56,140 nucleotides of DNA from a virus (taxonomy: Duplodnaviria; Caudoviricetes), in the IMG/VR virus record IMGVR_UViG_3300044972_000535, positions 1 to 56,140 of that record. The stretch is one strand, 5' to 3'. Of this stretch, positions 10,601 through 28,655 are shown piece by piece. A program made the translations under genes and the position numbers. Below the pieces are notes generated by a model. It searched no databases and was not told where the DNA came from. It saw only the letters and a list, made by a program, of their open reading frames with translations. The first letter of the stretch is position 1. Every line of letters begins with the position of its first letter.

Positions 10601-11137
10601 ATCGAGGGGTACATGGGGACTATGGCGGGGTACTTCACAGCCGCCGTGGACACGATCCTGGCCGGCGTGGGGACTATCCCCAAGAAGCCAGGTGGGGTGT
10701 TTGGCGACCCGTACCGGATTGCCGACACGCTGGGAGAGGTCAGCGGCGTGACCAGCTTTGTGCGGGACAGTGACCGGAACACCAGCCGCTTTGTCCGTGA
10801 CTTCTATGAGATGAAGCGGGAGGCTGACCAGGCTGCCCGTGCCTACAAGGTCTTGCGTGAGAAGGGCGACACCGAGACGGCGCAAGAACTGCTCGAGCAA
10901 AACCGTGCGCCAATTGCTGCCCGTACCCAGCTTGGCCGGCTGTCGAAGCAAATGACCGACATCAACAAGCAGATCGCCAGGGTCGAAACAGATGCCAAGG
11001 CGACGCCGTCTGAGAAGACCTTGAAGCTGAAGTCGTTGATGAAGCGGCGCAAGGCCATTGCCAGAAGTGGGTACGAGTACGCCCGTGGCATCAAGATCGC
11101 CTCCACATACGACGATGAGGCCGATACGGAAGAGTAA
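1673..11137 (+). CDS. Large polyvalent (ejection) protein: zincin HEAFH peptidase, putative HhH-GPD-like domain, two ART-PolyVal-like domains, C-terminal LPD38-like domain
   Basis: 3154 aa; Gly/Ala-rich N-terminal region; HEAFH at 4838-4852; two F.SWF.DS.VVD..G.P.VVYHG...QIKSA..N.G.FDP units; C-terminal IRLPRAFEVG...NWFTQRPI...SPKRVDY. Confidence 0.85.
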   Translation: MASNYLDDWFAKYSGGGEGGSQPAAATSPAATKIQSQIARIDEVAAKRKAGLKDSAVQRGISAVNDFLTPFSDGDEITNSINSRRQELQSELDTINRQGGVKKNEGFVDDVKSTFRSGVGSLKTGTAYLGKKAGLDTSALQGSGEVDQAVAQESFSDETKRIREEGVFGDQKGIADRAYAAVLGVTESTPGLLATIPITAAAVAALPEAAALAIGARAVPVLASRAPWLLRAIGVTAEQAATTQGAVIVGRQLVGTLAGTVTEGVQAAGSAGYETEGQIKRQIDANPEAFAQSELGRSLLEKTSGDLAKARDMAASDVAGNVALTTGFATSLLAIPGSAFESRIVSGLARKGFMKEAAFGAVGEGLQEAPQSGAEKLISNVGMQSVGSEVGTFEGVGRAAAEGAVVGGLLGGGVGTVGGALTPYERTPPPQGKDDELAAALDAERAVAGQPDRGGRTLESPNTLIDREVSALDEQMGTLRVGGLNLTPTQIMQSARANERDPRIANIMSQPVSPQTKVEQVARILNAEDASRLEPQVVQKITPLVGGTNKLSQTRAAIETELSKVDEAVIAESPILSAMAQAVAKDEKGKYAMGGKQAVDAVRGAVTGYRPTAPQGQTVFVRPERGGDGGVSMTQDQVAEERQREREAGQAFDLADRRQRRYESQTGVGGQREDLRPGASEPESQIFLDPKAYGEQLGWTPATLVASETPGMVRVQYESTSEMGADGAPVIISDEVSLNDLVGRVVRGSPRLTQEFARDQRRPQAGVGTGMAGPRNSIDRTSSKSLTTTPEPGPPMVRPVEPNFRYEGTRPNSGRGSQSAQPAAQQDTLPSPQQDAAPTPQDTLPAPQPKLEDNTDQQDGGEQYSGRASKRQKRVYGTQEKVAPAAKEAQPASLPAQGAAQPKQADNRATDARDADSATPDEARAAPKAEQVDYKAVIQDRLDKLAVRGRQGKVLANRIRSLMKDKNLTATQLYHAFQMGEVMSRVLPKNAGIDILFVPSLTATDATAAANSATRVGEEIPGKVQMYEISQNGFRGLITMSLSDSVLSVARENAAHEAFHVVQDMLFAYDRPAFDQINQSFFDGMRIDDLDASILRTLKTLSLNGQTSVYESLKSDFGNTPFGSSFEAQAVAFGALVDAKDRGSQMKGLKASFIRVVDMLANFRREFKNGLDKSGVQSVAEIFDGYRAGKAQENLTERAPLAGEGRASAEQYTARGVFPVPQRLFDKVGVPEEQRTRGGTYIDPKNREVFTGRTFGDATISINPETGSPSFVIDDATETEAMTPKDGTTVRTNLFKQKAGWKWVGDDRPAKTVVSVETRGKHFYTLATKFDTPVTLKSYPDAPSEPRLRPTTFGEITLGEQIGEIDVRGKLHPVYEGVTVHARGVQYSARTGKGKSQKPEYKHPEIGAQKIKVPLRGTSTIPFLYDNGKDKAEQTPGKSMALKDSVQFIQARTRTALMNRFGIDRIVGPNPDTDAYLSQTIASEAEAAILKERATGNRSALDWYTSAIENAIDEASAIYPMLTSDNAAMARNNQLGFRGKEDARVAFTLALSITSQNMKVRDNARATVEQFDVFLETGRFDPSRSYGTKAPSISGNLALANFMLEQVFDRNIANFGSFLNTEFTVSELNGIAKGIAKKGGMDKPPFSISGEQASEMVYGSAIFGPKIGNGFYQNLNRNFSPVTIDLWFMRLWGRLTGTLVGNDAAIAKQLQGLRDAIEADSHPTMKVPDGYVETVKNATEEEMVGVAVQMTAEWERQYKAFQKQGLTSKEITDQNLKPEWAYKAVAIAGQLKPNDAPTSGGQRKWIRDVVKTSVAMLAKNGYNVTPADLQALVWYPEKDLINLFKEGKLEANLNVSYDTAFKELAARRNANDQTADTNAGDGTGDGNARRSDGGRRADETLGQADQALAAGTVEEEGDKVRRTLPGQNRQRLIDRGAMYSGRTGSAEFKSWFRDSKVVDTDGNPRVVYHGTTSEISEFKPTNGVNGQIWGAGYYLTPDARYASSFAKDFTKPRADEDTGGNVMPLYASLQNPLQDAQEMTDIKREVGSNGAAITAEVKRRGYDGVDITIGGRPIVVAFEPAQIKSAVSNSGKFDPEDARIQYSGRTGSAEFNSWFGDSQVVDKNGDPLVVYHGSPNRGIEAFDTTRVTQRSARGDLAGAYFTSEPFSASNYARTTGSKERGKVYSTYLKIENPLDTTDAIRRYLRRGMSFNDAKQKALEALTPENDGVIFRGNGINTPEYVVFSPTQIKSATDNNGNFDPNDERIRYSARRGQRYTGGVSQSMMDKVVSNEPEPGVFGTFLDKMVGRRGGESRRRALVRNLVSDKDGMFMLDRMLDAAQRGVDISDGRVPVDGSSVGRAMEMASQSSGVVQAALEYGPPVFDGDLTTIHQDIPGLFDIFAPIGEEKADAFQTYAVARREKELRSGGRVGFTTLTDEEISETLSNADAEFKTVFDNYQAFNQVVLDYAVDTGLMTSELGDKLKSMDYIPYYRALELDSGELDVLGPNMGEALNNPKSALDLRLKGGDTGLGNLYENLIRNTQSILSAARKNLALQEAADAIDALNTAGVTGLGFKVREPKGEGVMRLRVDGKPAYYKIEDLAVWTAIASLGPQSRNMFVEVGSKLAGVLRSGITLSPSFMLRNLYRGKISAFVTTDAKLGIGIDSFKGAKDAFQGGEATRIIKVNSGMGGYTYGMGERDFANEIRRRYRRDEGGGYGFIRDWGDRFKGVLVGLEKIGEASEFAERVKLYKDLVAKGVTEKSAAYEAMNLTNFGRKGAGEGYIGYVASGLVPMIPFLNARIQGLYRIAENQQNEPTIMGLRQQVMIRGLLLTAASTLLYALAADDDRWDEESTENKMLNDIIYVGDKTIRLPRAFEVGTLFASMPIAFMDYVRDNDGQELGRKVRFAFMSTFALNPVPQMFLPGIGAAANLNWFTQRPIDNMADQNLPEAMRFDGNTSEIAKGIGKLADVSPKRVDYVIEGYMGTMAGYFTAAVDTILAGVGTIPKKPGGVFGDPYRIADTLGEVSGVTSFVRDSDRNTSRFVRDFYEMKREADQAARAYKVLREKGDTETAQELLEQNRAPIAARTQLGRLSKQMTDINKQIARVETDAKATPSEKTLKLKSLMKRRKAIARSGYEYARGIKIASTYDDEADTEE
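7284..7469 (+). CDS. Nested out-of-frame 61-aa ORF inside the polyvalent gene
   Basis: GGAG at 7272-7275, ATG 7284; MTRQPTPMQETELATAMHDAAMVDAVPTKPLDKQTKLWLREQLKKKGIKFDEPSLDKTAKG; fills an inter-domain linker. Confidence 0.55.
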   Translation: MTRQPTPMQETELATAMHDAAMVDAVPTKPLDKQTKLWLREQLKKKGIKFDEPSLDKTAKG

Positions 11138-11401: not shown

Positions 11402-12259
11402 TCACAGCGAGCCGATGTTGTCGGCAACCTTGCGGAGATGCTTGGTTGACAAATGGGCGTACCGCTGAACCATGCGGTCGTCCGACCAGCCTCCCATCTC
11501 ACGCACTGCTGCCGTGTGAGTCCCCTTCTGGATGTGCCATGACGCCCAGGTGTGGCGCAGGTCATGCCAGCGAAAGTTCTCAATACCCGCTCTCTTCAAC
11601 GCATTTCTGAAGGCACGGGTTCCGCTGCGGTAAACAGGCTTGCCACCGTAGGCGAACACCCATTCTTCGTTGCGACCCTTGTCGGCATTGCTTTTCCTCA
11701 AGACATCCCATGCGATGTCGTTGAGCGGGATGGAGAGCGTTTTACCGTTCTTCATCTTGCTGCCGTCAATCGTCACCATCCGGTTGGGCAGGTCTACTTC
11801 CTCCCACCGCAGAAGGCGGACGTTCGAGTCCCGCAATCCTGTGGCCAGCGCGAAGGTCACCTTTGCTCTCAGATGGCGGGGCAGTTCGTCCAACAGCTTG
11901 CGCGCTTCAGACTTCTCAATGAACCGCACCCTCTTTGGCTCCTCCATCCTCTTGATCTTGGGGGCGACATCAATCCACTCCCAATCATCTCGAGCCATGT
12001 TGAGGATTGACCGCAGCACGGTCATGTAGCGATTTACTGCCGCTACGCCACGATCCTTCATCAACTCATCACGCAGGTTCGTAATGACACCCTTCGTGAT
12101 CTTCACCAGAGGCCTGCCTTCCAGGAGCGCCTCGCCTTCGTGCTTCGTGGTTGTCAGGACATCGACGTAGTGTCGCTCCTGCTTTACCCACTTCCTTTCG
12201 GCGCGGCCCGCAAGCCACCGGTTTGATGCGTCGTTCCAGGTCTTCTTAACTTCGTCCAT
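11402..12259 (-). CDS. int: Tyrosine integrase
   Basis: ATGLRDSN, K(MKNG), RWHDLRHT, GGW, QRYAHL motifs; GGAGG before ATG 12259; adjacent attP. Confidence 0.95.
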   Translation of the reverse strand: MDEVKKTWNDASNRWLAGRAERKWVKQERHYVDVLTTTKHEGEALLEGRPLVKITKGVITNLRDELMKDRGVAAVNRYMTVLRSILNMARDDWEWIDVAPKIKRMEEPKRVRFIEKSEARKLLDELPRHLRAKVTFALATGLRDSNVRLLRWEEVDLPNRMVTIDGSKMKNGKTLSIPLNDIAWDVLRKSNADKGRNEEWVFAYGGKPVYRSGTRAFRNALKRAGIENFRWHDLRHTWASWHIQKGTHTAAVREMGGWSDDRMVQRYAHLSTKHLRKVADNIGSL

Positions 12260-12339
12260 ATACACCTCCATAAAGGCGGAGGCGTCCACCAGGTAATCAT
12301 GCCAGTAGACGACAACCCTGTCGATTTAACTTAATTCAG

Positions 12340-13435: not shown

Positions 13436-13618
13436 TTAGTCCAACTGGACGTTCTTGATGCGGCTGATGTGTGCGAAGTAGAGGTTGACGGCCTGGCGCA
13501 GCACACTTGCTACAGGGCGGTCTTCTACGATGGAACGCTCGCACAGCGCCCTATAGGTCTCGTCATCAACCGTCGTTTGAACTAAGCGGTTTTGACCCTC
13601 CCGTTTGATCTTGACCAT
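13436..13618 (-). CDS. Ribbon-helix-helix DNA-binding protein
   Basis: LVQTTVDDETYRAL...DRPVASVLRQAV pattern. Confidence 0.7.
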   Translation of the reverse strand: MVKIKREGQNRLVQTTVDDETYRALCERSIVEDRPVASVLRQAVNLYFAHISRIKNVQLD

Positions 13619-14526
13619 TACTCTTTTCCTCCAATGAAACTCACGTTAAACGAAACCACTCCAGGGTTTCGGTAGTCATCCAACGTCTTGCCGGACTCCT
13701 TCAACAGCTTGTCGAGATTGATGTCGCTGTATAGCGTCTTGCTATTAACGGACCCCTTCTTGTCGATGCGCTGAAGCTTCACGCCGGCAGCCTCGAACGA
13801 CCCGAACTCGCTCCCCAATTCCTTTTTCAGCGCATCGAACTCTTCACGGGTGGAGGCCGTCTCGATTTCGGCGGCTTTGAGTAGTGTGAATAACTCTGCA
13901 AATCGCCTAGCCTTTGGATGGGATAGGGTCAGCACCCCGCTTCCGAGATGCTTTGCTGAACGCTCACCGTCTCCAATTACCTCGAGGTACTCGGATCGGA
14001 ACGCTTCAAGCTTAGGCAGGTTTGTCGCGAACCAGTCTATGTCCCGCGCCACTCGCTCCACCGTGAAGCAGTCCTCGCTTATATAAACAAAGAAATCCAT
14101 CCAATCGAGGTCACACACCTCCATGACGTGCTGGACTTGAGCGTAGTACCCAGGCTTTTCGTACACCGAGTACGGCTTCTTTGCCCAATACGGACACTTG
14201 ATTTCCAAGCCACCATTCAAGCCTATGAGGCCATCGGGTGATGCGCCGAGCCAGTCATACAGGTCGTGCTTGACAAGTCCGGTCTGCTCGACTGTCTGCA
14301 TCTGGGTCTTCTCGTAGTAGGCGAGAGCGACTGGTTCCATACGCTCACCGTGGTTGGTGGCGGCGTTGCCCTGGAACTCCTTCTCAGCGCCAAGATGTTC
14401 ACGAACCATCTCGCGCATGACATCTTCGCGTGTGGCGAAAGGGTTGACCCCGAGGATCGACCCGACGCGGCTGCCGGTGATTACACCGACACGCGCCTTG
14501 AACCACTCTTCACTCCGCTGTTCCAT
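13618..14526 (-). CDS. YqaJ/lambda-type exonuclease
   Basis: QRSEEWFKAR..ITGS, GASPDGL, LEIKCP, YYAQVQ. Confidence 0.93.
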   Translation of the reverse strand: MEQRSEEWFKARVGVITGSRVGSILGVNPFATREDVMREMVREHLGAEKEFQGNAATNHGERMEPVALAYYEKTQMQTVEQTGLVKHDLYDWLGASPDGLIGLNGGLEIKCPYWAKKPYSVYEKPGYYAQVQHVMEVCDLDWMDFFVYISEDCFTVERVARDIDWFATNLPKLEAFRSEYLEVIGDGERSAKHLGSGVLTLSHPKARRFAELFTLLKAAEIETASTREEFDALKKELGSEFGSFEAAGVKLQRIDKKGSVNSKTLYSDINLDKLLKESGKTLDDYRNPGVVSFNVSFIGGKE

Positions 14527-14740
14527 CTTCGTCCTTCCTGATCGAGGGCATCGGCCTCAGTTGGTGTAGTGAGCAGGTCGCACTGACGCAGTCCCTGACC
14601 TGCTCCCGCCACGTCCCTCTGCCTATCGGGTCATAGATGCACTCGCGGCACTTGGCGTTGATTGCCTGGCGCATCGATGGACGGGGAGGCTTTCCCTTGA
14701 GCGCCTCGCGCGCCTTTACCAGCCGCTCCTCCTTGGTCAC
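14510..14740 (-). CDS. Small Cys-rich hypothetical protein
   Basis: AINAKCRECI...C...C.LH. Confidence 0.65.
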   Translation of the reverse strand: MTKEERLVKAREALKGKPPRPSMRQAINAKCRECIYDPIGRGTWREQVRDCVSATCSLHQLRPMPSIRKDEDGTAE

Positions 14741-15438
14741 GCCAGTTTCACTTTCAGTTCATCCTTCAAGAGGGTGAAGGTCTGAAGCATTTCCTTGTCG
14801 TTGCGGTTGTTGGCGTACTTGCTTGCCTTCGTGAATGAAGACTTCAGTTCAGCCAATCCCTTCGATGCCTGCATCGCAGCACGAAGTTCCACAACTGGAT
14901 CGTATGGCAACTCCACTTCAGGCGCGGATGGATCAAAGGCCGGCACATCCTTTGCCGGTTCTGACTTGGATGCATCAGGCAGGTCTTCGCCTGCGTAGAT
15001 GTAGTGGCCTAGTCCGAACAGCGCCATGGCCTTAACCAGGCAGCGCATCTTGGTGTCGTTGACGGCTCGAGCGTCCGGCTTCGGTATCGGCTTGTTGCGA
15101 TGATCCATCACAGGCAGCCACATCACGCGCATGACGCCGTCGACCGACAGTGCGCAACGCACCTCAGCTGTGCCGTCCGGATAGTAGAAGACCTCACCGC
15201 CGCCATCGCCGAACTGATCGAACGAGAACTTGCTGTTGGGGAAGTTGTCCATCAGGACGCCCCACGCCCACGCCCAGCTGAGATAGCTGAAGCCATTCTT
15301 CTTTTCGACGTGTTCGTTGACGTTGATCGTGGACAGAGTGTCCCAAATCAATTTTGCTTTTGTGGCGACAGCATCTTTCACCGAAGACGGAAGGTGAATC
15401 GAGTTGATCGACGCGATGCCGGATGTCTGCGTTTCCAT
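14737..15438 (-). CDS. Sak3-like (DUF1071) single-strand annealing protein
   Basis: INVNEHVEKKNGFSYLSWAWAW, LPVMDHRNK, RCLVKAMALFGLGHYIYAGEDLP; GGAG RBS before 15438. Confidence 0.88.
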   Translation of the reverse strand: METQTSGIASINSIHLPSSVKDAVATKAKLIWDTLSTINVNEHVEKKNGFSYLSWAWAWGVLMDNFPNSKFSFDQFGDGGGEVFYYPDGTAEVRCALSVDGVMRVMWLPVMDHRNKPIPKPDARAVNDTKMRCLVKAMALFGLGHYIYAGEDLPDASKSEPAKDVPAFDPSAPEVELPYDPVVELRAAMQASKGLAELKSSFTKASKYANNRNDKEMLQTFTLLKDELKVKLA

Positions 15439-15664
15439 GTTCGTACTCCCTGGTTGCAGCATCAACATAGCGGCTTGTGCACAGAGATCAACTTTTGTGT
15501 TTCGCTGAATGGGGATTCTTTTCGCTGGTGTGACATTTATGTCACTCGCATTTGCGTACATATAAAGATGTGTGGAACGCTGTAGACCCTCCGGTGTAGA
15601 AATCGCATCGCCAGGCGTTGGTGTGGGGTTGTTTCCCGCAATTCTCTCGCCTATGTCTGGCACC

Positions 15665-15736
15665 GGACGGCTAGGTTCGCTACCGAAAAGCCATGTTCGC
15701 CTTGCGTGAAGACCCTTCCCGTATGGCCTGCCGTCC
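15665..15736 (+). ncRNA. Candidate structured cis-regulatory RNA
   Basis: GGACGGC/GCCGTCC closing stem; GG-TTCGCTA-CC, GAAAA linker, GCCAT/ATGGC stem with inner hairpin. Confidence 0.4.
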
Positions 15737-15775
15737 AACTTCTTGGCGAGCAGGCAATAGGTGCAGGGGCATTCA

Positions 15776-15826
15776 ATGATTTCAGATACAGACGCCACCA
15801 TCACGACCTGTGCGGCCACACGATGA
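15776..15826 (+). CDS. Possible 16-aa leader peptide coupled to the initiator
   Basis: MISDTDATITTCAATR*, AGGGG upstream, ATGA overlap with ATG 15823. Confidence 0.3.
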   Translation: MISDTDATITTCAATR

Positions 15827-16656
15827 GTGGCTGGTACAAGATGCATCGTGGATGGATGGATGACTCGCTGTTCGACGGCGACGCTTTCTGCAAACGCTCC
15901 GCATGGGAGTACCTGATCCACGAAGCCGCATACGATGACCACCATCAGTGGTTCAACGGCAAGCAGGTAGAGGTCAAGCGCGGCCAGTTCGTTGTGTCAG
16001 AACGCAAGCTGTCAGAGGCTTGGAGGTGGGATCGGCAGCGTGTTCGCACGTTTATCAGGCAACTCGAACGCGACGGAAAAGTAACCCGCGAGGTAACCCA
16101 GGGTGTAACCCAGCTAAACCTCCGGAATTACGAGCGTTTTCAGGGATGCCAACCCACCGATAAACCCAGCAGTAAACCCACAACTAACCCAGAACTAACC
16201 CAGAGCAAACCCACAACAGAAGAAGGGAAAGAAAATGAAGAAGGGAAAGAAGGAAAGAAAGTAGCGCGTGGGACGCGCCTCACCCCCGACTGGGTGTTGC
16301 CTGATGACTGGCGTGACTCGGCCAAAGCGGAGAAGGGTTGGTCTGATCACGACGTGTCGGCGGAAGCCAATCGGTTCCGCGACTACTGGGTCGAGAACAC
16401 AACCAAGACTGGCGTGAAGCTGGATTGGAGGAAGACCTGGGCCAACTGGATCGACCGCAGCAATCGCAAGCCAACATCAAGTGCGATGGCGGGGATGTCT
16501 TTCGCTCAGGCGCGTGACCGCATCAAGGAACTCGAGCGTGAAACCGAGTTGATGCTGATCCAGCTTCCTGATAGGCCGTCTCTCCGCGAGAGATACATCA
16601 AGAGCAAAACGGATTTGGAAGACCTGCGCAAAGCGGTCGAATGGAAGGGACGCTGA
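15823..16656 (+). CDS. Replication initiator (lambda O/DnaD-like)
   Basis: MSGWYKMHR N-terminal wHTH type, internal iteron linker, C-terminal F.DYW...KLDWRKTWANW. Confidence 0.85.
   Translation: MSGWYKMHRGWMDDSLFDGDAFCKRSAWEYLIHEAAYDDHHQWFNGKQVEVKRGQFVVSERKLSEAWRWDRQRVRTFIRQLERDGKVTREVTQGVTQLNLRNYERFQGCQPTDKPSSKPTTNPELTQSKPTTEEGKENEEGKEGKKVARGTRLTPDWVLPDDWRDSAKAEKGWSDHDVSAEANRFRDYWVENTTKTGVKLDWRKTWANWIDRSNRKPTSSAMAGMSFAQARDRIKELERETELMLIQLPDRPSLRERYIKSKTDLEDLRKAVEWKGR
16081..16260 (+). repeat. Origin iterons inside the initiator gene
   Basis: About 9 copies of (T/A/C)AACCC(A) followed by a purine tract AGAAGGGAAAGAA. Confidence 0.7.
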
Positions 16657-21746: not shown

Positions 21747-22240
21747 AGGTCGTTCTAACCCGCAGCGAAGTCCGCATTTGCGAATGGCTTGGCGAGCAGC
21801 GCCTGGTGATCAACAAGAAGCGCGGCATCAAGGACGCCCGGATCGGGCCACAGTCCAGCCTTCAGACGGATATCGACGGGTTAAAGGGTGAGTTCGCTTT
21901 CGCCAAGATGTTCAATCTCTGGCCCGACCTACAGCTGGGTCAGCGCCCGCTGCACGATGTCATGTCCCCCTTGGGGGGAGTCGATGTCAAGACCACGCGG
22001 CACAAGGGCGGGCGTCTCTTAGCTACTAAGAAGAAGCAGGCGATACCGGCGGACTGGTATGCCCTGATGTGGTTGGAAGACGACAGAATCGTCCACTTTG
22101 TCGGAGCATCCACAGCCGGCCAGTTGCTTGATGACGCGAACCTTCGCGACCTTGGCTATGGTGAAACATACGCACTCGATTGGGGTGGTCTGGTGCGACC
22201 GGAGGCGTTCCAAGGCCTCCTAGCCAGCGCCATCGTCTAG
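21743..22240 (+). CDS. Putative PD-(D/E)xK nuclease-like protein
   Basis: GLKGEFAF...D...VDVKTT. Confidence 0.55.
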   Translation: MKVVLTRSEVRICEWLGEQRLVINKKRGIKDARIGPQSSLQTDIDGLKGEFAFAKMFNLWPDLQLGQRPLHDVMSPLGGVDVKTTRHKGGRLLATKKKQAIPADWYALMWLEDDRIVHFVGASTAGQLLDDANLRDLGYGETYALDWGGLVRPEAFQGLLASAIV

Positions 22241-22444
22241 GTGCGCAGCGGTGTCCACGTACCCGCCAATGATCTTGAGTACTTGGGGAACCGTCTTCGC
22301 ACCCAGGGAGCGCATGATTGCATACAGTTCAGGATTATCTGACAGGTTGACGGTGGCGTAGGACTTGCCAGCATCAGACATGGCCTCCTTCGCCTTGTCG
22401 CACCACTTGCAGTCATCCATTGTCAGTATCAGGTATTCGATCAC
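22220..22444 (-). CDS. Glutaredoxin-like protein
   Basis: CKWC, TVPQV, IGGY. Confidence 0.8.
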   Translation of the reverse strand: MIEYLILTMDDCKWCDKAKEAMSDAGKSYATVNLSDNPELYAIMRSLGAKTVPQVLKIIGGYVDTAAHLDDGAG

Positions 22445-22806
22445 GCGGCGTCCTCCAGTTGGCGTCGCTCTGCGCACACAGGGCATTCGCCCCGGAGATA
22501 GTTAGCGACCCTCTTTCGCCTGTTGCTCTTGGTCGCTCCAAGCAGGTTCAGGATGGATGTGTGGTCACGGTTCATGAGACGCCCGATCTGAACGCTGGAC
22601 AGGCCTTGACCGTGTAGGTGCATGGCTATCTCGCGTCGGGCATCGACCACATATCTCGCGCGGGATTCGCCCAGCACAGCGGCTGCCGTGGTTTGGTGAC
22701 GGGCTGCAACCTCCGCGATGTACGCCATGTTCTTCTCGCGCGGTGTCGGCGTAACTTCAAAAACATCCGGCGCAACTGTGGGAGCGACATCTGCGTGATC
22801 GCTCAT
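22441..22806 (-). CDS. DnaA C-terminal-like HTH protein
   Basis: SR....V.AR..I...L...GLS..QIGRLMNRDHTSIL. Confidence 0.78.
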   Translation of the reverse strand: MSDHADVAPTVAPDVFEVTPTPREKNMAYIAEVAARHQTTAAAVLGESRARYVVDARREIAMHLHGQGLSSVQIGRLMNRDHTSILNLLGATKSNRRKRVANYLRGECPVCAERRQLEDAA

Positions 22807-23081
22807 TCGCCCTGCTCCCGCGACGGCACTAACGACAGGGCGGGAAGACCCTTCGCTGCGCATTCGATCTTATGAGCAAGCGCCGCGTGTTGCGGGTCAC
22901 TGCTGCTGCCGACTTCGTCACCGATGATCGCCAGGATATCGGCAATCGGTGTCTGTGTACGGTACTGATATGCCCGATCATGGGGGCTACGTTCATCCAC
23001 GACGACGAAAGTCACGTCACCGGAAATCTTGTACGTCTCTTCGCCATCTTCGTCGATGTGAACCAGAACAGTCGGTGTCAT
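22803..23081 (-). CDS. Hypothetical protein
   Basis: 92 aa, ATGA-coupled. Confidence 0.6.
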   Translation of the reverse strand: MTPTVLVHIDEDGEETYKISGDVTFVVVDERSPHDRAYQYRTQTPIADILAIIGDEVGSSSDPQHAALAHKIECAAKGLPALSLVPSREQGE

Positions 23082-23251
23082 CCATCAATCTCCACAAAGT
23101 CATTGCAATCGTCACCACCGGGAAACTCTGCGTAGGATTGTCTCGGTGCGGCAGGCTTTACCCATCGCCAGCACACAGCGGTACGTGAGCAGCGGTGCGA
23201 GCCAGTGAGGCAGGACGCCATGTCGGCGCGAGAGGTTTGCTGCTGGCTCAT
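23078..23251 (-). CDS. Small Cys-containing hypothetical protein
   Basis: MSQQQTSRADMASC...C...CWRW...C; coupled to the last array cassette. Confidence 0.6.
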   Translation of the reverse strand: MSQQQTSRADMASCLTGSHRCSRTAVCWRWVKPAAPRQSYAEFPGGDDCNDFVEIDG

Positions 23252-23421
23252 GCGCCTTGCTCCTTGGGTTGCGCTGCGAGGGCGGCGGCGTAGGTGGCGT
23301 TGGCAGCGTCGAGCGCGGCGTTGTAGGTGGCGTTGGCGGAGTTTACGGTGGCGTCCCATGCGGCGTAGGCGGCGTCTGCGGCGGCGTCGAGGGCGGCTCT
23401 TAGTTTCTCTAACTCAGTCAT
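23248..23421 (-). CDS. Ala-rich cassette protein H (57 aa)
   Basis: MTELEKLRAALDAAADAAYAAWDATVNSANATYNAALDAANATYAAALAAQPKEQGA. Confidence 0.75.
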   Translation of the reverse strand: MTELEKLRAALDAAADAAYAAWDATVNSANATYNAALDAANATYAAALAAQPKEQGA

Positions 23422-23570
23422 CAGTCATTTTCCTTCTCTTGCGCTGCGAGTGCGGCGGCGCGATAGGCGGCGCTGTAGGCGTAGGCGGCAGCGCCCCATG
23501 TGGCGTAGGCGACGGCATAAGCTTCCCGCTTGGCGTCCATGTCGGCTTTCAACTTTTCCAGATCAGTCAT
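23421..23570 (-). CDS. Ala-rich cassette protein G (49 aa)
   Basis: MTDLEKLKADMDAKREAYAVAYATWGAAAYAYSAAYRAAALAAQEKEND. Confidence 0.75.
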   Translation of the reverse strand: MTDLEKLKADMDAKREAYAVAYATWGAAAYAYSAAYRAAALAAQEKEND

Positions 23571-23731
23571 TGGTCTGTCTCCTGTTCTTGCGCTGCGATT
23601 GCGGCGTCGAGTGATGCGAGGCCGGCGATGTAGGCGGCGATGGCGGTTAGCGCAGGTTTGTACTCCTCTATGGCATCGTATGCGTCGAGGGCTGCGTCGC
23701 GGGCGGCTCGCAGTTTCTCAAGGTCAGTCAT
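23567..23731 (-). CDS. Ala-rich cassette protein F (54 aa)
   Basis: MTDLEKLRAARDAALDAYDAIEEYKPALTAIAAYIAGLASLDAAIAAQEQETDQ. Confidence 0.75.
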   Translation of the reverse strand: MTDLEKLRAARDAALDAYDAIEEYKPALTAIAAYIAGLASLDAAIAAQEQETDQ

Positions 23732-23883
23732 TGGTCTGTCTCCTGTTCTTGCGCTGCGAGGGCGGCTTCTGCGATGGCGAGGCGTTCGATGAGGGTTTCA
23801 ATATCCTTCTCATGCTGGCCAAAATGGCCGGCGTCCTCGGCATCGAGCCACGCTTGCAGTCGTCCCACGGCATCACTCTGCAT
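23728..23883 (-). CDS. Cassette protein E (51 aa, unrelated body)
   Basis: MQSDAVGRLQAWLDAED...AALAAQEQETDQ. Confidence 0.7.
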   Translation of the reverse strand: MQSDAVGRLQAWLDAEDAGHFGQHEKDIETLIERLAIAEAALAAQEQETDQ

Positions 23884-24055
23884 CGGTCTGCTCCTTAGTT
23901 TGCGCTGCGAGGGCGGCGAGGTAGGCGGCAATGGCGGCGTTGAGGGCGGCGTGGATCGCGGGTGGGCTGTCGGCGTCCCATGCGGCGATGGCTGCGGCAT
24001 CGTATGCGTCGAGGGCTGCGTCGCGGGCTGCTCTTAATCTCTCCAAGTCAGTCAT
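23873..24055 (-). CDS. Ala-rich cassette protein D (60 aa)
   Basis: MTDLERLRAARDAALDAYDA...AAYLAALAAQTKEQTDAE. Confidence 0.75.
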   Translation of the reverse strand: MTDLERLRAARDAALDAYDAAAIAAWDADSPPAIHAALNAAIAAYLAALAAQTKEQTDAE

Positions 24056-24221
24056 TGGTCTGCTCCTTAGCTTGCGCTGCGAGAATGGCGTTGTAGGCCT
24101 TGCTAACGGCGTCGTAAGCGGCGCGGGCGGTGTTGGCGGAGTCTACGGTGGCTTGCCATGCGGCGTAAGCGGCATCTACGGCGCTGACCCCTGCGGCCTT
24201 CAGCCTCTCTACCTCAGTCAT
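24048..24221 (-). CDS. Ala-rich cassette protein C (57 aa)
   Basis: MTEVERLKAAG...AYNAILAAQAKEQTND. Confidence 0.75.
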   Translation of the reverse strand: MTEVERLKAAGVSAVDAAYAAWQATVDSANTARAAYDAVSKAYNAILAAQAKEQTND

Positions 24222-24627
24222 TGGTCTGCTCCTTGGGTTGCGCTGCGAGAATGGCGTTGAAGGCGGAGTTGGCGGCGTATACAACGGCATCGCCGGGGAG
24301 ATGGTGGCCTGCTTCGATGTGATTGCGCAGGTTGTCCACCTCCATGCAGACGCGGTAGTAAGCCGGATCGCCGCGCATTTTGCGGAGATACACCACAATC
24401 GCAGCCGTTGCTTTGCGCTCGCCTTCGGTCAGGCCGTTGTGCCAGCCAACGTCGTAGTGCCATCGCGTCGCCACAGCGGTTCGCAACCGCTCAATCTCCG
24501 CCATAGCAGTCCGTATGGTTGCTGCGGCGACGGTGTGGTGGTCGCGCTGCTGCTCCGCGTTGTCATAGCGAACCTCGCAAACTGCACCCGCCTCATGCCA
24601 CTGCGCCAGTTTTTCTAGATTAGTCAT
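24214..24627 (-). CDS. Cassette protein B (137 aa, unrelated body)
   Basis: MTNLEKLAQWHE...FNAILAAQPKEQTND. Confidence 0.75.
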   Translation of the reverse strand: MTNLEKLAQWHEAGAVCEVRYDNAEQQRDHHTVAAATIRTAMAEIERLRTAVATRWHYDVGWHNGLTEGERKATAAIVVYLRKMRGDPAYYRVCMEVDNLRNHIEAGHHLPGDAVVYAANSAFNAILAAQPKEQTND

Positions 24628-24826
24628 CGGTCTGCTCCTTAGTTTGCGCTGCGAGGGCGGCGAGGTAGGCGGCAATGGCGGCGTCCCGGTCAGCATTGGC
24701 GGCGTCTACGGCGGCGTCGAAAGCGTCTCGGGCGGCGTCGAAGTCGGCGTAGGCAACGTCAATGGCGGCGTTTCGGTCGTCGTATGCGGCGTCGAATTCG
24801 GCCTCCAGTCTCTCTAATTCGGTCAT
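24620..24826 (-). CDS. Ala/Asp-rich cassette protein A (68 aa)
   Basis: MTELERLEAEFDAAYDD...AAYLAALAAQTKEQTDD. Confidence 0.75.
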   Translation of the reverse strand: MTELERLEAEFDAAYDDRNAAIDVAYADFDAARDAFDAAVDAANADRDAAIAAYLAALAAQTKEQTDD

Positions 24827-24837
24827 CGGTCATTTTC

Positions 24838-24957
24838 CTATCTGTACGGGATGGCGGATAGCCAAGGCGCGAAGGCTACGGCCAGCGCCAGCACGATAAC
24901 GACGATGGACTGCCGATAGCTAAGGTGGCGCTTACCGGGGCGCTCGGGGTCAATCAT
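24838..24957 (-). CDS. Small membrane protein (39 aa)
   Basis: MIDPERPGKRHLSYRQSIVVIVLALAVAFAPWLSAIPYR; CAGGAG RBS. Confidence 0.55.
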   Translation of the reverse strand: MIDPERPGKRHLSYRQSIVVIVLALAVAFAPWLSAIPYR

Positions 24958-25165
24958 TGTCTGTCTCCTGTTTGATGTGGGCCGCAACTTCCACAAGGCG
25001 AGCGGCGCGCTCTTCCGCCAATTTGGCTCGGGCGATGTGTGTAGCAAACCAAGTCGGCGACGCAGCGTTGAAACTGGCAATTTCGTACTCGGTTTTCGCC
25101 TCGTTGTTTGCGTCGTCAATCGCTCCGCGCAACGCCTCCAGATGCTGGCGGGTTACCGTCACCAT
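24950..25165 (-). CDS. Hypothetical protein
   Basis: MVTVTRQ...IKQETDND; C-terminus resembles the array junctions. Confidence 0.55.
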   Translation of the reverse strand: MVTVTRQHLEALRGAIDDANNEAKTEYEIASFNAASPTWFATHIARAKLAEERAARLVEVAAHIKQETDND

Positions 25166-25302
25166 GTCAGCATCCACCCGGCGATCATCGTGGCGGTCAG
25201 CAAGAGCCACGCGCAAGCCATCATGCCGGCCAGCCGCTGTGCCATGCGCTGCCGGCGCTGCTGGCGCTCTATAAGGGATGCGAGGGTAATGAAGCGTTCC
25301 AT
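25159..25302 (-). CDS. Small membrane protein (47 aa)
   Basis: MERFITLASLIERQQRRQRMAQRLAGMMACAWLLLTATMIAGWMLTW; AAGGGA upstream. Confidence 0.5.
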   Translation of the reverse strand: MERFITLASLIERQQRRQRMAQRLAGMMACAWLLLTATMIAGWMLTW

Positions 25303-25315
25303 GCGTAGAGTCCCT

Positions 25316-25918
25316 TTATTGGTTGCTTGTACTCAACTCTTCAGCGAAGCCGGTGCCGCGCGCTATCTCGAGCATTCTGTCCTGGGCAACGACCCCGAAA
25401 CCGTCAACGAAATAGTGCTTGGTGCCGTGGTGGGGGAGATTGTTGAGGTCGCCCCATGTCACGCGCTGGTGTTCAAAAATCTTGATGTCGCAGCGGTACA
25501 CGTTGTGTTTGTACCGCCGCAAGAACTGGGCGGCGCGGTCATAGATTGTCTGGGCAGCCTCAGCCTGCCGGACTAGGTTGCTAGAGCGGCCATAGTCGGT
25601 GCGCTTTGACTCTCCATCGATCCAGTGAACGCCATTGTCGATCAAGATCGACTTGATCATCCCTCTGCCCAGTTGGTACTTCCGCGCCATCTCGCTGAGG
25701 GTGTGCGACTTTGCGTCGTTGAGCAGTCCGTCAGGGGCAACAAGCTTGCCACCCAGCCGCTTGGTGTCCTGCAACCGCAGTGGAATGTCGTTGACCTTGC
25801 GCGTCTCTAAAAACTGCTCCGGCGGAAACCCGATGACTCCAGATATCTGGGCAACGGAACCACCGCCTTCGTACATCATCACGAACAGTTCACGCTGTTG
25901 ATCCGTGAGTCTCATCAC
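25316..25918 (-). CDS. Hypothetical protein with HTH-like segments
   Basis: 200 aa; SVAQISGVIG and TLSEMARKYQLG helices. Confidence 0.6.
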   Translation of the reverse strand: MMRLTDQQRELFVMMYEGGGSVAQISGVIGFPPEQFLETRKVNDIPLRLQDTKRLGGKLVAPDGLLNDAKSHTLSEMARKYQLGRGMIKSILIDNGVHWIDGESKRTDYGRSSNLVRQAEAAQTIYDRAAQFLRRYKHNVYRCDIKIFEHQRVTWGDLNNLPHHGTKHYFVDGFGVVAQDRMLEIARGTGFAEELSTSNQ

Positions 25919-26068
25919 AATCCCTTTAAAGTAAGTTCCGGTGTTCCTTCGATTCGCCGCAATTTATGACAACCCCTGTACCCCACGGCGTTAACGCTTG
26001 CGCGCATCGAAAGCTTCAATCCCGCCACCGGAGATCGAGATTACGAAAGGAGGGGGAGGGGTAACTGG

Positions 26069-26233
26069 TCAATCTATAAGTTTCTCTGTGCGAGTGATCT
26101 GCACGATGTGGAGAGGGATTCCAATCTTTATTTCGTACCGGTTCCGCTCTTCACGTGCGCGCATCAGGCTGTCGAATGAAAAGACGGGCGCGTTCAGGCG
26201 TGTGCGCAGTTCGTATGTGATGGTCATGGGCAT
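26069..26233 (-). CDS. Small hypothetical protein (54 aa)
   Basis: AAGGAA RBS; MPMTITYELRT...EKLID. Confidence 0.55.
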   Translation of the reverse strand: MPMTITYELRTRLNAPVFSFDSLMRAREERNRYEIKIGIPLHIVQITRTEKLID

Positions 26234-26250
26234 TTCCTTCGACTGAGGGG

Positions 26251-27120
26251 TCAGGCCGCTTGCGCGACCTGCTCCGGTTCCGACATGCCGATCAGCAGAT
26301 CGACCGCCTTGGTTGCAGCAGACGCTGCCGACACGAACTCACGCTTGTGGTCGCCAAGCTTCTTGATCCACCCGTTCAAGTAGTGGGCGTGGTCAATGCG
26401 CGGCTCTGAACTAATACCCAAGTTGGCGCACAGGAAGGCGGCACCCAGTTCAGCGATCAGTTCCTCGCGGGCGTAGTCTTCGCTGCCGAAGGCGTTTGCC
26501 TGTTCACGGTTCAGGCGCGACTTGTGGCCCGTCCAGTGAACCAGTTCATGGGAGATGGTGCTGTAATAGCATTCAGCAGCCGTGCTGGTGGGGGTGTCCT
26601 CGAAGACATCGAGGGCGGGGACGTGGACGCTGTCGCGGGCGGGCGAGTAATAGGCGCGGCCTGCGTCGGAAAAGGTGATCTGGGCAGGAATTTTGCGGAA
26701 AAAATCCTCAGCACCCGCGATCCGTTCTGCGACTGTCGGCTCTTCGATGACCTCAGCCTGATAGCCATCAACCTGATCGGCGTTGAACACGTTGTAGTAC
26801 TTCAGGAATGGGATGCGCTGCACCTTGCCGGCTTCCTCTTTCTCGATGAACTGCCAGAACACGATGGTGGTGGACTTCTCGCCCTTGCGCACTTGGCAGT
26901 CGCGCTCGTTCCACTGCTTGTACGTACCCCACACAGGCGATACGAAACCAGACCAACTGAGCAGCAGCGTGTTAACGCCGCGATAGTGTTTCTTGCTGGC
27001 GATGTTCACGGGGAGGGCGGACTTGCCCTTGCGGGCGAAGGGATTAACCCAGTTCGACCCGTGCTGTTCCATCATCTCGAGAACGCGGTCGGTGACCTGT
27101 GAGTAGACATCAAGCTTCAT
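26251..27120 (-). CDS. ardC: ArdC-like antirestriction protein (ssDNA-binding + zincin)
   Basis: YRGVN..LL, WGTYKQW...VRKGEK, VFNADQ, HELVHWTGH, YAREELIAELGA. Confidence 0.92.
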   Translation of the reverse strand: MKLDVYSQVTDRVLEMMEQHGSNWVNPFARKGKSALPVNIASKKHYRGVNTLLLSWSGFVSPVWGTYKQWNERDCQVRKGEKSTTIVFWQFIEKEEAGKVQRIPFLKYYNVFNADQVDGYQAEVIEEPTVAERIAGAEDFFRKIPAQITFSDAGRAYYSPARDSVHVPALDVFEDTPTSTAAECYYSTISHELVHWTGHKSRLNREQANAFGSEDYAREELIAELGAAFLCANLGISSEPRIDHAHYLNGWIKKLGDHKREFVSAASAATKAVDLLIGMSEPEQVAQAA

Positions 27121-27153
27121 GGCACTGCTTCCTTGCGTTGTGCTGTTGGTGAA

Positions 27154-27182
27154 GGTGTAAAAAGGGGAGACCCAGGTGTCAA
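27154..27182 (-). promoter_or_regulatory. Sigma70-type promoter for ardC
   Basis: TTGACA-17 nt-TACACC on minus strand. Confidence 0.5.
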
Positions 27183-27193
27183 CCCTAGTACTT

Positions 27194-27460
27194 TCAATAG
27201 ACGTAGCCGGGACTGGACGCTTCCACGTCGGGCCACGGGTTGGCGCACAGGACGCGCCCCAAGTAATTGACGGTCACGTAGCCGGGGCAGAGGTAGAGTT
27301 TCCCGTCGCAGTCCACGACCGTCCAGACGTTGCGCTGGTCTGTGTCCGGGGGGACATCGCGCCAGCCGCGCATGATCGACCCGTCATCCATTTCGACGGG
27401 GGTATATCGCCGCTCGAACGTGTCATAGGTGCCGGCGCGGGTGCGTTGCTTGATGGTCAT
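27194..27460 (-). CDS. Hypothetical protein
   Basis: 88 aa, GAGGGG RBS, VWTVVD.DG...G...VN..G. Confidence 0.65.
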   Translation of the reverse strand: MTIKQRTRAGTYDTFERRYTPVEMDDGSIMRGWRDVPPDTDQRNVWTVVDCDGKLYLCPGYVTVNYLGRVLCANPWPDVEASSPGYVY

Positions 27461-27614
27461 TGGTGTTCCCCTCAGAAGCCGGTGATGGCGATAACGTAGC
27501 GGCCATCATCAACCCGCGCACTGAACTGAATGTTGCGATGGGTGAGGCCTTCGACGGTGTTGAGGAAATCCTCGAGCGTGATGCAAATGATGTTCATGTG
27601 TTTTTCCCTTCGGC

Positions 27615-27935
27615 TTAGTTGGAGGTTGCGAGGCGGTAGAGTTCGCCCATCGCTTCGTTGTCGGTGTGATCGGAGATCAGTTCCTCGCCGCTGGGGTCAT
27701 TGCCCCAGATCAGGGAAAACGTGCCGACCACGCCGCCGTCAGAGTGACGCACCCGGATGTAGTCTTCGCCGGTCGAGGCAAGCGCATTGATGATCTCTGT
27801 CGTGCTGCGGCTTTTCAGGACAGTCCACTCTTCGCCATCGTTCACGGAGACGAGGTGTCCGGCGGCGAGGATGGCGTTGACCAGCCTGCGGGCCACTGTG
27901 CGTTCGCCGACCGTTGCGTGTTCCATTGCAGTCAT
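27615..27935 (-). CDS. Hypothetical protein
   Basis: GGGAG RBS; SVNDGEEW...LIWGN....E.ISDHT. Confidence 0.65.
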   Translation of the reverse strand: MTAMEHATVGERTVARRLVNAILAAGHLVSVNDGEEWTVLKSRSTTEIINALASTGEDYIRVRHSDGGVVGTFSLIWGNDPSGEELISDHTDNEAMGELYRLATSN

Positions 27936-27960
27936 GTCGTTCTCCCTTGTGATGAGGTGA

Positions 27961-28182
27961 TCAGGAAACTTTGGCGATGATGCCGTCACGCATGGTGACC
28001 TCAGCGAAGAACTCGCGGCCCTTGATGCCGGTGATCGACGGGCGGTTCGATCCGCAGAACTGACCGTCGCGGCGGAACTCAGCGCCGAAGATCGATGTCT
28101 CTTGGTAGCGCAGTGCCTGACCAACGGAAGCGGCCAGTTCCTTCTTGGATGCGTATTTCAAAATCATCATCGGTGTCTCCAT
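27961..28182 (-). CDS. Small hypothetical protein
   Basis: YASKKEL...VGQ.LRY.ETSIFG.E...REFFAEVTM.DG.I.KV. Confidence 0.7.
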   Translation of the reverse strand: METPMMILKYASKKELAASVGQALRYQETSIFGAEFRRDGQFCGSNRPSITGIKGREFFAEVTMRDGIIAKVS

Positions 28183-28214
28183 CGTCGTAGCGTCGAACCG
28201 TCTCGACCTGCTAA

Positions 28215-28243
28215 CTAATAGAAGTGCGAAATTTATGCGTCAA
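28215..28243 (-). promoter_or_regulatory. Sigma70-type leftward promoter
   Basis: TTGACG-17 nt-TATTAG on minus strand in an AT-rich intergenic region. Confidence 0.6.
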
Positions 28244-28379
28244 CCCACCTCGCTAAAGTTTTTTTATGTAGACGTGGCTGAATGGCCATAACCCTCGGTT
28301 TTCAGGTCGAAATAAAAATTTCATCGGTGCATGATCGATGTCGATCCGCCATCTGCAATCTGATAAGAGGGGTGATGCG

Positions 28380-28655
28380 TTGACACACTGGGACGATGCC
28401 GTGGACTTACCGATGATCGATCACCGCTTGGAACGCATCGAGGACGAGATGCGGGGCATCGCGGAGGCGCTGAAACACCTCACGCGGGTCGATGAGCGGC
28501 TGAAGCAACACCGGGACACCATCGACGATCATGAGACGCGCATCCGCGACCTTGAGACGCTTGGACACACGGCCAAGGGTTCGTTCGTGACAGCAGAGCG
28601 GGTGATCTGGTTCGCCATCACCGCCGGTCTGGCGCTGCTGCAATTCGTCGGTTGA
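28380..28655 (+). CDS. Coiled-coil protein with C-terminal TM (XhlA/holin-like)
   Basis: GAGGGG RBS, TTG start; IDDHETRIRDLE, C-terminal hydrophobic helix. Confidence 0.55.
   Translation: MTHWDDAVDLPMIDHRLERIEDEMRGIAEALKHLTRVDERLKQHRDTIDDHETRIRDLETLGHTAKGSFVTAERVIWFAITAGLALLQFVG

Follow-up and report, generated by a model that had tools for sequence, protein, structure and literature searches.

An array of eight overlapping mini-genes occupies the minus strand of IMGVR_UViG_3300044972_000535, a complete IMG/VR virus record of 56,140 bp (CheckV completeness estimate 100%) that we analyzed at its full length and refer to as the window; its PHROG and NCBIfam matches are those of a temperate, tailed phage, and its source water was a lake. 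The array is confirmed as a real feature, and the 12-nt core that recurs toward the end of its genes, CTCGCAGCGCAA, is conserved at the nucleotide level. The explanation that we consider probable is linker-mediated modular shuffling of coupled mini-gene cassettes in a hypervariable slot. Phage accessory regions turn over anti-defence and host-takeover genes, and how this turnover stays non-destructive is mostly conjecture. The locus is a compact case, from a natural population, of the linker idea associated with Botstein and with the promoter(early)-stem-loop (PeSL) elements of phages, and it appears to offer both a defined 12-nt exchange point and an 8-nt start/stop adaptor that tolerates two frames.

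Architecture of the mini-gene array

Eight matches to TCGCAGCGCAA were found in the window, all on the minus strand, where shuffled sequences give an expectation of 0.09 and none of 100 shuffles reached eight. They lie at 23269, 23439, 23588, 23749, 23900, 24072, 24238 and 24644, with spacings of 170, 149, 161, 151, 172, 166 and 406, and mark eight minus-strand open reading frames (ORFs) of 49-137 amino acids (aa) that are chained by stop/start overlaps of 1-11 nt (8, 8, 8, 11, 4, 4 and 1 nt along the array, and 4 nt between the last cassette, c8, and the next gene). The eight ORFs, the recurrent core and the spacings were all confirmed as given in the original prediction for this stretch. Most of the cassettes share an N-terminal head and a C-terminal tail and belong to one protein family, which is considered below.

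24620-24826, minus strand: c1, 68 aa, Ala/Asp-rich family member, MTELERL..AAQTKEQTDD
24214-24627, minus strand: c2, 137 aa, family head and tail with another type of body (..ERKATAAIVVYLRKM..GHHL..)
24048-24221, minus strand: c3, 57 aa, family member
23873-24055, minus strand: c4, 60 aa, family member whose model is a two-helix hairpin
23728-23883, minus strand: c5, 51 aa, of differing body (MQSDAVGRLQ..), sharing just the tail with the family
23567-23731, minus strand: c6, 54 aa, chimeric family member
23421-23570, minus strand: c7, 49 aa, family member whose tail is shortened
23248-23421, minus strand: c8, 57 aa, family member whose stop overlaps (ATGA) the start of an unrelated next gene
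23078-23251, minus strand: 57-aa gene (MSQQQ..), ATGA-coupled to c8, the downstream edge of the array in the window phage

A Shine-Dalgarno (SD)-like hexamer, AAGGAG, CAGGAG or AAGGAA, lies within the last codons of all eight cassettes, in agreement with the ribosome-binding site that had been placed there beforehand, and seven of the eight start as foreseen with MT(D/E/N)(L/V)E(K/R)L, c5 starting with MQSDAV. The expectation that each stop would overlap the next ATG stood in part: genes overlap at all junctions, but the stop touches the ATG at only four of the eight (ATGA three times, TGATG once), the other four having their ATG 5-8 nt ahead of the stop in overlaps of 8, 8, 8 and 11 nt. At the c7/c8 junction (23421-23437, minus strand) there is also a 7-nt tandem duplication, ATGACTG-ATGACTG, which creates a 4-codon mini-ORF before the c8 start. 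Antisense Gly-rich ORFs opposite the array (e.g., 23205-23633, plus strand) were rejected as genes; they have no SD and are judged to be by-products of GCC-rich Ala coding.

Two pairs of junctions are identical over long tracts (60/60 and 36/36 positions) and a third pair agrees at 44/46, again as predicted. The 60-nt direct repeats bracket c2-c3-c4 and the 36-nt direct repeats bracket c6.

23881-23940, minus strand: 60-nt tract identical to 24625-24684, comprising tail, core and SD up to the ATG
23563-23598, minus strand: 36-nt tract identical to 23724-23759, comprising core, SD and the head octamer ATGACTGA

A coding core that is fixed as DNA

Seven cassettes carry the core exactly and one carries a variant of it.

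23269-23280 (c8), 23439-23450, 23749-23760, 23900-23911, 24072-24083, 24238-24249 and 24644-24655, minus strand: 12-mer core CTCGCAGCGCAA
23588-23599 (c6), minus strand: core variant ATCGCAGCGCAA

Read in frame, CTCGCAGCGCAA encodes Leu-Ala-Ala-Gln. It is combined with an SD and a head at all eight window junctions and in all the related arrays, and it lies 3-6 nt upstream of every SD. Is this merely a conserved peptide? The codons indicate otherwise. Among 41 unique genes with an (L/I)AAQ tail, a set whose codon statistics are biased since most of its loci were found by scanning for the motif itself, the core uses GCA in 41/41, GCG in 39/41, CAA in 41/41 and CTC for 37/38 Leu, compared with 14.6%, 10.7%, 28.6% and 30% for the same codons in the bodies of those genes. 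It had been envisaged that the junctions might be alike at the protein level only, with saturated synonymous sites; these sites are fixed, not saturated. The codons immediately before and after the 12-mer vary freely, and synonymous codons that are fixed while adjoining codons vary argue against a simple conversion tract.

Two sets of loci were gathered independently of the motif, one via a gene of about 200 aa that lies downstream of related arrays (see below) and the other via the head-peptide pattern. In the latter, a degenerate head-peptide search that retrieved 10 metagenome loci, 15 of the 19 unique tails carry the exact 12-mer and the remaining four differ by 1-2 nt. In five further records with arrays, copies of the 12-mer are confined to the array itself, two per record and on one strand, with no occurrence on the reverse strand and none of the control.

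Dual coding was considered as the cause of the synonymous fixity and rejected, because the frame in which the following gene reads the 12-mer is not the same in junctions with 8/11-nt overlaps as in those with 4/1-nt overlaps. A further copy of the core, in another frame of a 64-aa gene (MTREVEILHRSA..) of some relatives, is attributed to chance, as it is not present in all orthologues.

Could the 12-mer rather have a job at the RNA level, as a ribosome restart or standby element or as a site of mRNA processing or regulation, with exchange as a by-product? Its constant position just ahead of the SD would suit such a role, and the junction RNA is unstructured by prediction (no conserved pairs in 20 aligned junctions, and thus nothing resembling a folded integron attC site), as expected of an open restart region. 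Moreover, neither a sigma-70 promoter nor an intrinsic terminator was found inside the array, so that each cassette would rely on upstream transcription and coupling; a scan of 22000-28600 gave no promoter-like sites where 2.2 were expected, using the sigma-70 consensus only. However, the 12-mer is absent at the upstream pair of c0 (a divergent ninth unit, described last) and the 39-aa gene, at the gene after c8 and at the first cassette's own start, and we know of no restart element that resembles it. An RNA-level function as the primary explanation therefore seems to us rather improbable.

Variation among related arrays and the position of breakpoints

Motif scans of IMG/VR recovered some 20 different viral contigs, each of which has 1-5 genes of the family. 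Their arrays occupy a conserved slot, having two membrane mini-genes upstream and a non-family gene downstream.

24838-24957, minus strand: 39-aa membrane mini-gene (MIDPERPGKRHL..), a conserved upstream anchor present upstream of 12 arrays
25159-25302, minus strand: 47-aa membrane mini-gene, upstream anchor

The twelve arrays for which both flanks are available contain 8, 4, 4, 3, 3, 3, 3, 2, 1, 1, 1 and 1 cassettes, that of the window being the largest, and their order differs as well as their number: a cassette type with ..STARDDYDAV.. is last in locus L006 and first in L013. An invariant array, which would have spoken against a portable junction, is thus not what relatives have. The 47-aa gene of the window shares 94.5-95.5% DNA identity over 109-111 nt with five loci on other contigs, a near-identity that points to recent exchange of the whole slot. 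In most relatives the array is followed by the gene of about 200 aa, which encodes an HTH_28/transposase-type helix-turn-helix (HTH; E 2.2e-6; L022 3218-3835), is absent from the window and is always coupled to the last cassette by a constant ..ETPNE/ATGAGTAA junction. Searching with this gene gave three new single-cassette loci (L164, L168 and L170), in which the exact core is found on three different bodies.

The window cassettes themselves have counterparts scattered among these loci. Cassette c1 is 93% identical to L005 at the DNA level across 252 nt, and c5 is 99% identical to the fourth cassette of L002 over the 90 nt upstream of the core. The C-terminal part of c2 is similar to the cassettes that stand alone in L168 and L020 and to the fifth one in L007, and c6 is a chimera, with an N-terminal 33-nt tract equal to that of c4 and a C-terminal half equal to that of the third cassette of L012.

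Where, then, does similarity begin and end? Cassettes with 93-100% identity along the 90 nt that lead up to the core turn unrelated 0-10 nt past it and, conversely, there are pairs with unrelated bodies that are 98% identical from the core onward. For a systematic comparison, 52 unique junction contexts were arranged in 1326 pairs, with positions counted from the first base of the 12-mer. Twenty-nine of the 1326 pairs are discordant, and in 25 of these the switch falls within -7..+22 of CTCGCAGCGCAA. All 14 pairs that agree upstream diverge at +12..+22, and 11 of the 15 that agree downstream switch at -7..+2, the other four doing so at +15, +15, +23 and -26. The sequence following the core tracks the next gene; ahead of the 200-aa gene, for instance, it is always ..gaaacccccaATGAGTAA. 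Because the SD and spacer past the core go with the next gene, the unit of exchange is SD, ATG, body and core. The proposal that the junction is portable and permits gain, loss and reordering is borne out by array sizes of one to eight, by shuffled order and by breakpoints that cluster at the junction.

A start that would tolerate two frames

The head octamer, ATGACTGA (or ATGACTAA), combines a start codon with stops at its positions 2-4 and 6-8, one in each of the two other frames, and both embedded stops are present in 40 of 47 unique heads. The MT(D/E/N/K) start of the proteins follows from these two stops being embedded in the nucleotides of the head. Of the upstream ORFs that bear a core, 13 terminate on the first of these stops, 10 on the second and one at -2. 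Since the head holds stops in both other frames, recombinants would stay coupled in either of those frames. To our knowledge, no such head has been described as a frame-tolerant adaptor.

Junctions in the third frame would give a fusion, and fused double units do exist, in L006 (3488-3841, oriented), L012 (2679-3035) and the proteins P0024, P0036 and P0086. In these double units the first unit has no tail and reads through in an alternative frame (..PPAPRKPIR-M..) into the next cassette. Two tails in tandem were noticed at L018 506-745 (also in L019, L035, L036 and L183): past its ..LAALAA ending the first cassette continues, in another frame, across one more core that is intact. The arrangement looks like a recombination or frameshift scar.

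An undescribed family of miniproteins

Six of the eight window cassettes form one family and align throughout their length, while c5 shares only the tail and c2 mostly just head and tail. A profile search in which 8000 candidates were scored placed at least 202 clusters at E<=1e-3, no Pfam domain being present in any of them, and a search of 50%-identity representatives gave 132 family clusters; the clusters come solely from metagenomes or viral contigs. Head and tail are both present in 90/120 homologues among the matches listed. Family proteins are acidic (isoelectric points 4.05-4.85) and contain 30-40% alanine, and the model of c4 is a two-helix hairpin (helices 3-28 and 31-59, pLDDT 77.7). 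Their bodies are mosaics of common segments. Bodies that are unrelated to the family bear the same tail and core in c5, c2, the Cys-rich cassette of L170, the fourth cassette of L007, the second of L020 and the third of L004.

Pfam, PHROGs and NCBIfam hold no family for any cassette or unrelated body, c2 included. In Foldseek searches of PDB and BFVD the model of c4 had no match at E<=1e-3 and drew only generic helical hairpins, the ESM Atlas returned only unnamed viral clusters with scores <=0.88, and nothing specific on the arrangement or the family was found in the literature, in a search that had subscription journals outside its coverage. The locus defines an unnamed miniprotein family whose members, given their neighbourhood and hypervariability, may interact with the host or its defences and are good candidates for such a role.

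These proteins invite a simpler reading, that of an ordinary tandem multigene family which evolves by unequal crossing-over, with ends constrained by the protein (packed against one another if it forms a hairpin), junctions homogenized by gene conversion and no cassette logic. The alignment of six cassettes along their length, the joint presence of head and tail in most of the listed homologues and a hairpin model that sets the N- and C-termini side by side are all as such a family would have them, and mosaics internal to the bodies, together with identical tracts of 33-60 nt, show that conversion or recombination does take place within these genes. However, the reading leaves unexplained the same tail and core on unrelated bodies and the fixation of non-preferred synonymous codons amid variable neighbours, which is unlike a conversion tract. 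Breakpoints flank the 12-mer on both sides, the MT(D/E/N/K) start is accounted for by the two embedded stops, and cassettes also occur in a T4-like backbone of different GC (see below). We consider a plain tandem family unlikely.

Integrity of the assembly

A repeat-rich array from a metagenome raises the question of whether its eight cassettes are a chimera of shorter, co-occurring arrays joined at their repeats. The region is present in 24 lake-water metagenome runs, four of which we examined as Logan contigs and unitigs. Unitigs do break at the junction repeats (36 and 60 nt), and alternative joints are present in the same runs, which include joints or loose ends of lower depth that place c3-like and c5-like cassettes directly before the 200-aa gene. 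These lower-depth joints belong to co-occurring relatives. In run X1, on the other hand, the eight listed pieces match the window with no other letters, at depths of 21.7-37.2 compared with 28.8 and 27.7 for the flanks; these depths fit one copy of each cassette per genome, and run X11 has a similar pattern. Depth is thus even across the array, as judged from contigs. Both repeats are shorter than ordinary reads, and independent assemblies of different metagenomes yielded arrays identical to one another (L012, L016 and L021; L018, L019, L035 and L036; L022 and L028). An assembly artefact is accordingly very improbable, although the order of cassettes across the 36-nt and 60-nt repeats is that of short-read contigs.

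Unrelated backbones and possible means of exchange

Cassettes occur in unrelated phage backbones, one of which is T4-like. The major head protein of the window is matched in only one of the five other array-bearing records (46-48% identity), and the replication genes beside the arrays differ among loci. Locus L177 resembles T4-like phages in having clamp-loader genes and, at E 1e-57, a RegA-like repressor, in a backbone of 42-46% GC; downstream of these genes it carries cassettes at 1063-1458 and 2316-2722 with 56.5% GC, the GC-rich sequence stopping just past the core, where an AT-rich SD and the start of a local gene follow. One slot holds arrays of one to eight cassettes, and the same cassettes are found in unrelated backbones.

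How might the cassettes move? We propose that a hypervariable slot in the leftward accessory operon of a temperate lake phage is filled with promoterless, translationally coupled cassettes, each laid out as SD, spacer, ATGACTGA head, body and CTCGCAGCGCAA. The 12-mer and the SD of the next gene would together form a linker, and short-homology recombination between linkers would insert, delete, reorder or swap cassettes, with an upstream cassette in either other frame terminating on the next start so that the recombinants would stay coupled. Most of the bodies belong to the acidic, Ala-rich hairpin family, which is undescribed and whose members are themselves mosaics, and unrelated small bodies would have been captured behind the same linker. 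The cassette genes are presumably translated, their proteins may act on the host or on host defences, and joining would proceed by general recombination, through either the annealing protein and exonuclease of the phage or the host's own functions. The relevant genes of the window are as follows.

11402-12289, minus strand: tyrosine integrase/recombinase (PHROG/NCBIfam match), the sole tyrosine recombinase, 11 kb from the array
13618-14526, minus strand: lambda-exonuclease-family nuclease (109 bits against a cut-off of 68)
14737-15945, minus strand: Sak-like single-strand annealing protein (SSAP; PHROG/NCBIfam match)

Several observations weigh against shuffling by general recombination, in addition to the bias of the codon statistics mentioned above. 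Homologous recombination alone does not explain the synonymous fixity of the 12-mer. The relatives are all short-read metagenome contigs, and the junction pairs have contexts in common and so are not independent events. Rad52-like SSAPs recombine short, diverged sequences, and the minimal pairing segment quoted for Redbeta is 23-27 bp (De Paepe et al. 2014, PMC3945230). The tracts common to unrelated junctions here are mostly 12-19 nt, so that plain SSAP recombination is not an easy fit and there is room for a sequence-specific or an RNA-level role of the 12-mer. Finally, a Sak-like/YqaJ-like pair had been suggested as the possible driver, a suggestion that does not hold in general: the Sak-like protein of the window has no homologue in any of the five other array-bearing virus records.

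The same shortfall in shared length, below published pairing minima for SSAPs, is what one would expect if the 12-mer were the recognition or crossover site of a phage or host nuclease or recombinase, that is, a true analogue of the integron core site. A 12-nt block that is invariant between variable flanks and fixed at synonymous sites, switch points within about 30 nt of it, and its retention in a T4-like phage and alongside differing modules for replication and recombination would all be in keeping with a dedicated system. Set against these are the lack of dyad symmetry in the 12-mer and of any predicted hairpin pairs in the 20 junctions, and the fact that no recombinase gene travels with the arrays, the window tyrosine recombinase being distant and not IntI-like. 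Four of the 29 switch points also fall outside -7..+22, and recombination within bodies is common, which means that general recombination is active here anyway. A dedicated site is in our judgement improbable. A wider version of the idea, in which the 12-mer as a sequence-specific exchange site and ATGACTGA as an expression adaptor would constitute an integrase-independent, integron-like capture system that trades small host-directed effectors among unrelated (temperate podovirus-like and T4-like) lake phages, is unlikely too, if perhaps a shade less so.

Relation to known systems

The best reading of the locus, if shuffling between linkers is accepted, is as a variant of the PeSL and Botstein-linker idea that works by translational coupling, and the idea itself is not new in kind. 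In PeSLs of T4-type phages (Arbiol et al. 2010, PMC2839356; Comeau et al. 2014, PMC4122927), recombination at the motif inserts, deletes and replaces ORFs; these elements are intergenic, with a sigma-70 promoter and a terminator stem-loop that make the cassettes transcriptionally autonomous, and mini-circles have been demonstrated. A comparison of PeSLs with integrons and with Botstein's linkers was drawn by the authors themselves (PMC2839356). The likeness to our locus lies in a boundary motif that is repeated and closes with an SD and a start, in small non-essential ORFs within a plastic region, and in insertions, deletions or replacements that distinguish related phages and have their ends inside the motif. 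The differences are that the linker here is coding, consisting of final codons plus an overlapping stop and start, whereas the PeSL is intergenic, and that neither promoter, terminator nor stem-loop was found here, whereas the PeSL has both promoter and stem-loop. Because none of these was found, the cassettes would depend on read-through translation. The core also differs in being a 12-mer fixed at its synonymous sites.

With integrons (IntI, attI, attC) the array has in common promoterless, co-oriented cassettes behind a fixed upstream anchor, variation in their number and order, and exchange at a short conserved core at the 3' end of each cassette. However, it has no IntI, the window recombinase scoring 37.8 bits against the integron-integrase model TIGR02249, with a cut-off of 265, and no folded attC; its cassettes overlap, are coupled and come mostly from one protein family. 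The likeness to an integron that had been drawn for it is hence an analogy only.

The linker model of Botstein and Campbell resembles the locus in that short conserved boundary sequences guide exchange and keep the newcomer expressed. There is likewise a resemblance to relaxed recombination by Rad52-like phage recombinases (De Paepe et al. 2014), as the window has a Sak-like SSAP and a lambda-exonuclease-family nuclease. Unlike in both of these, the modules here are single genes of 50-140 codons in tandem, and unlike in the Rad52-like case, the common tracts are mostly below the quoted pairing lengths and the SSAP is not common to the other array phages. Termination-reinitiation of the ATGA type is comparable in its overlaps of 1-11 nt and its SD inside the upstream coding region; the difference is that the head has a stop in each alternative frame and that the two serve about equally often (13 versus 10).

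Genomic setting

The array is part of a leftward cluster of genes (about 28124 to 22220), among whose other products is a sigma70-region-4-like protein. Further PHROG and NCBIfam matches in the window are to a primase/helicase, RusA, terminase, portal, major head protein and tail fibres, and the following genes are of interest with respect to anti-restriction functions and to the vicinity of the array.

1673-11137, plus strand: 3154-aa ORF with PHROG matches to a DarB-like anti-restriction protein and a large virion protein
26251-27120: ArdC-like anti-restriction protein, in the same leftward cluster as the array
22441-22863: DnaA-domain-IV-like HTH gene, which the window, like L004, has in place of the HTH gene of about 200 aa found in most relatives

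The 57-aa gene downstream of c8 has no family match. By major head protein, the closest cultured phages are alphaproteobacterial phages, at <=41% aa identity; among the INPHARED cultured phages there was no DNA match for a 3.6-kb region and no tblastn match for cassette c4, and the flanking 200-aa sigma70_r4-like gene, used as a query of IMG/VR, returned no relatives. A motif scan of genome contigs gave at least 121 stretches, none of which has the mini-gene signature (158 loci were screened in all), and so yields no prophage or host lead. By our own arithmetic, a pattern of 16 fixed bases should hit this collection about 280 times by chance.

A divergent ninth unit lies upstream of the array, between the two membrane mini-genes, which directly adjoin each other in relatives such as L168.

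24950-25165, minus strand: c0, 71 aa from ATG, tail ..AAHIKQETDND

At this point about 209 nt are missing from contigs that co-occur with the window phage (runs X11 and X16), with joints from 24951 to 25159/25161, and c0 uses the common 14-mer SD module AACAGGAGACAGAC. By these features c0 looks like the insertion of a cassette at a second slot, reusing the SD module.

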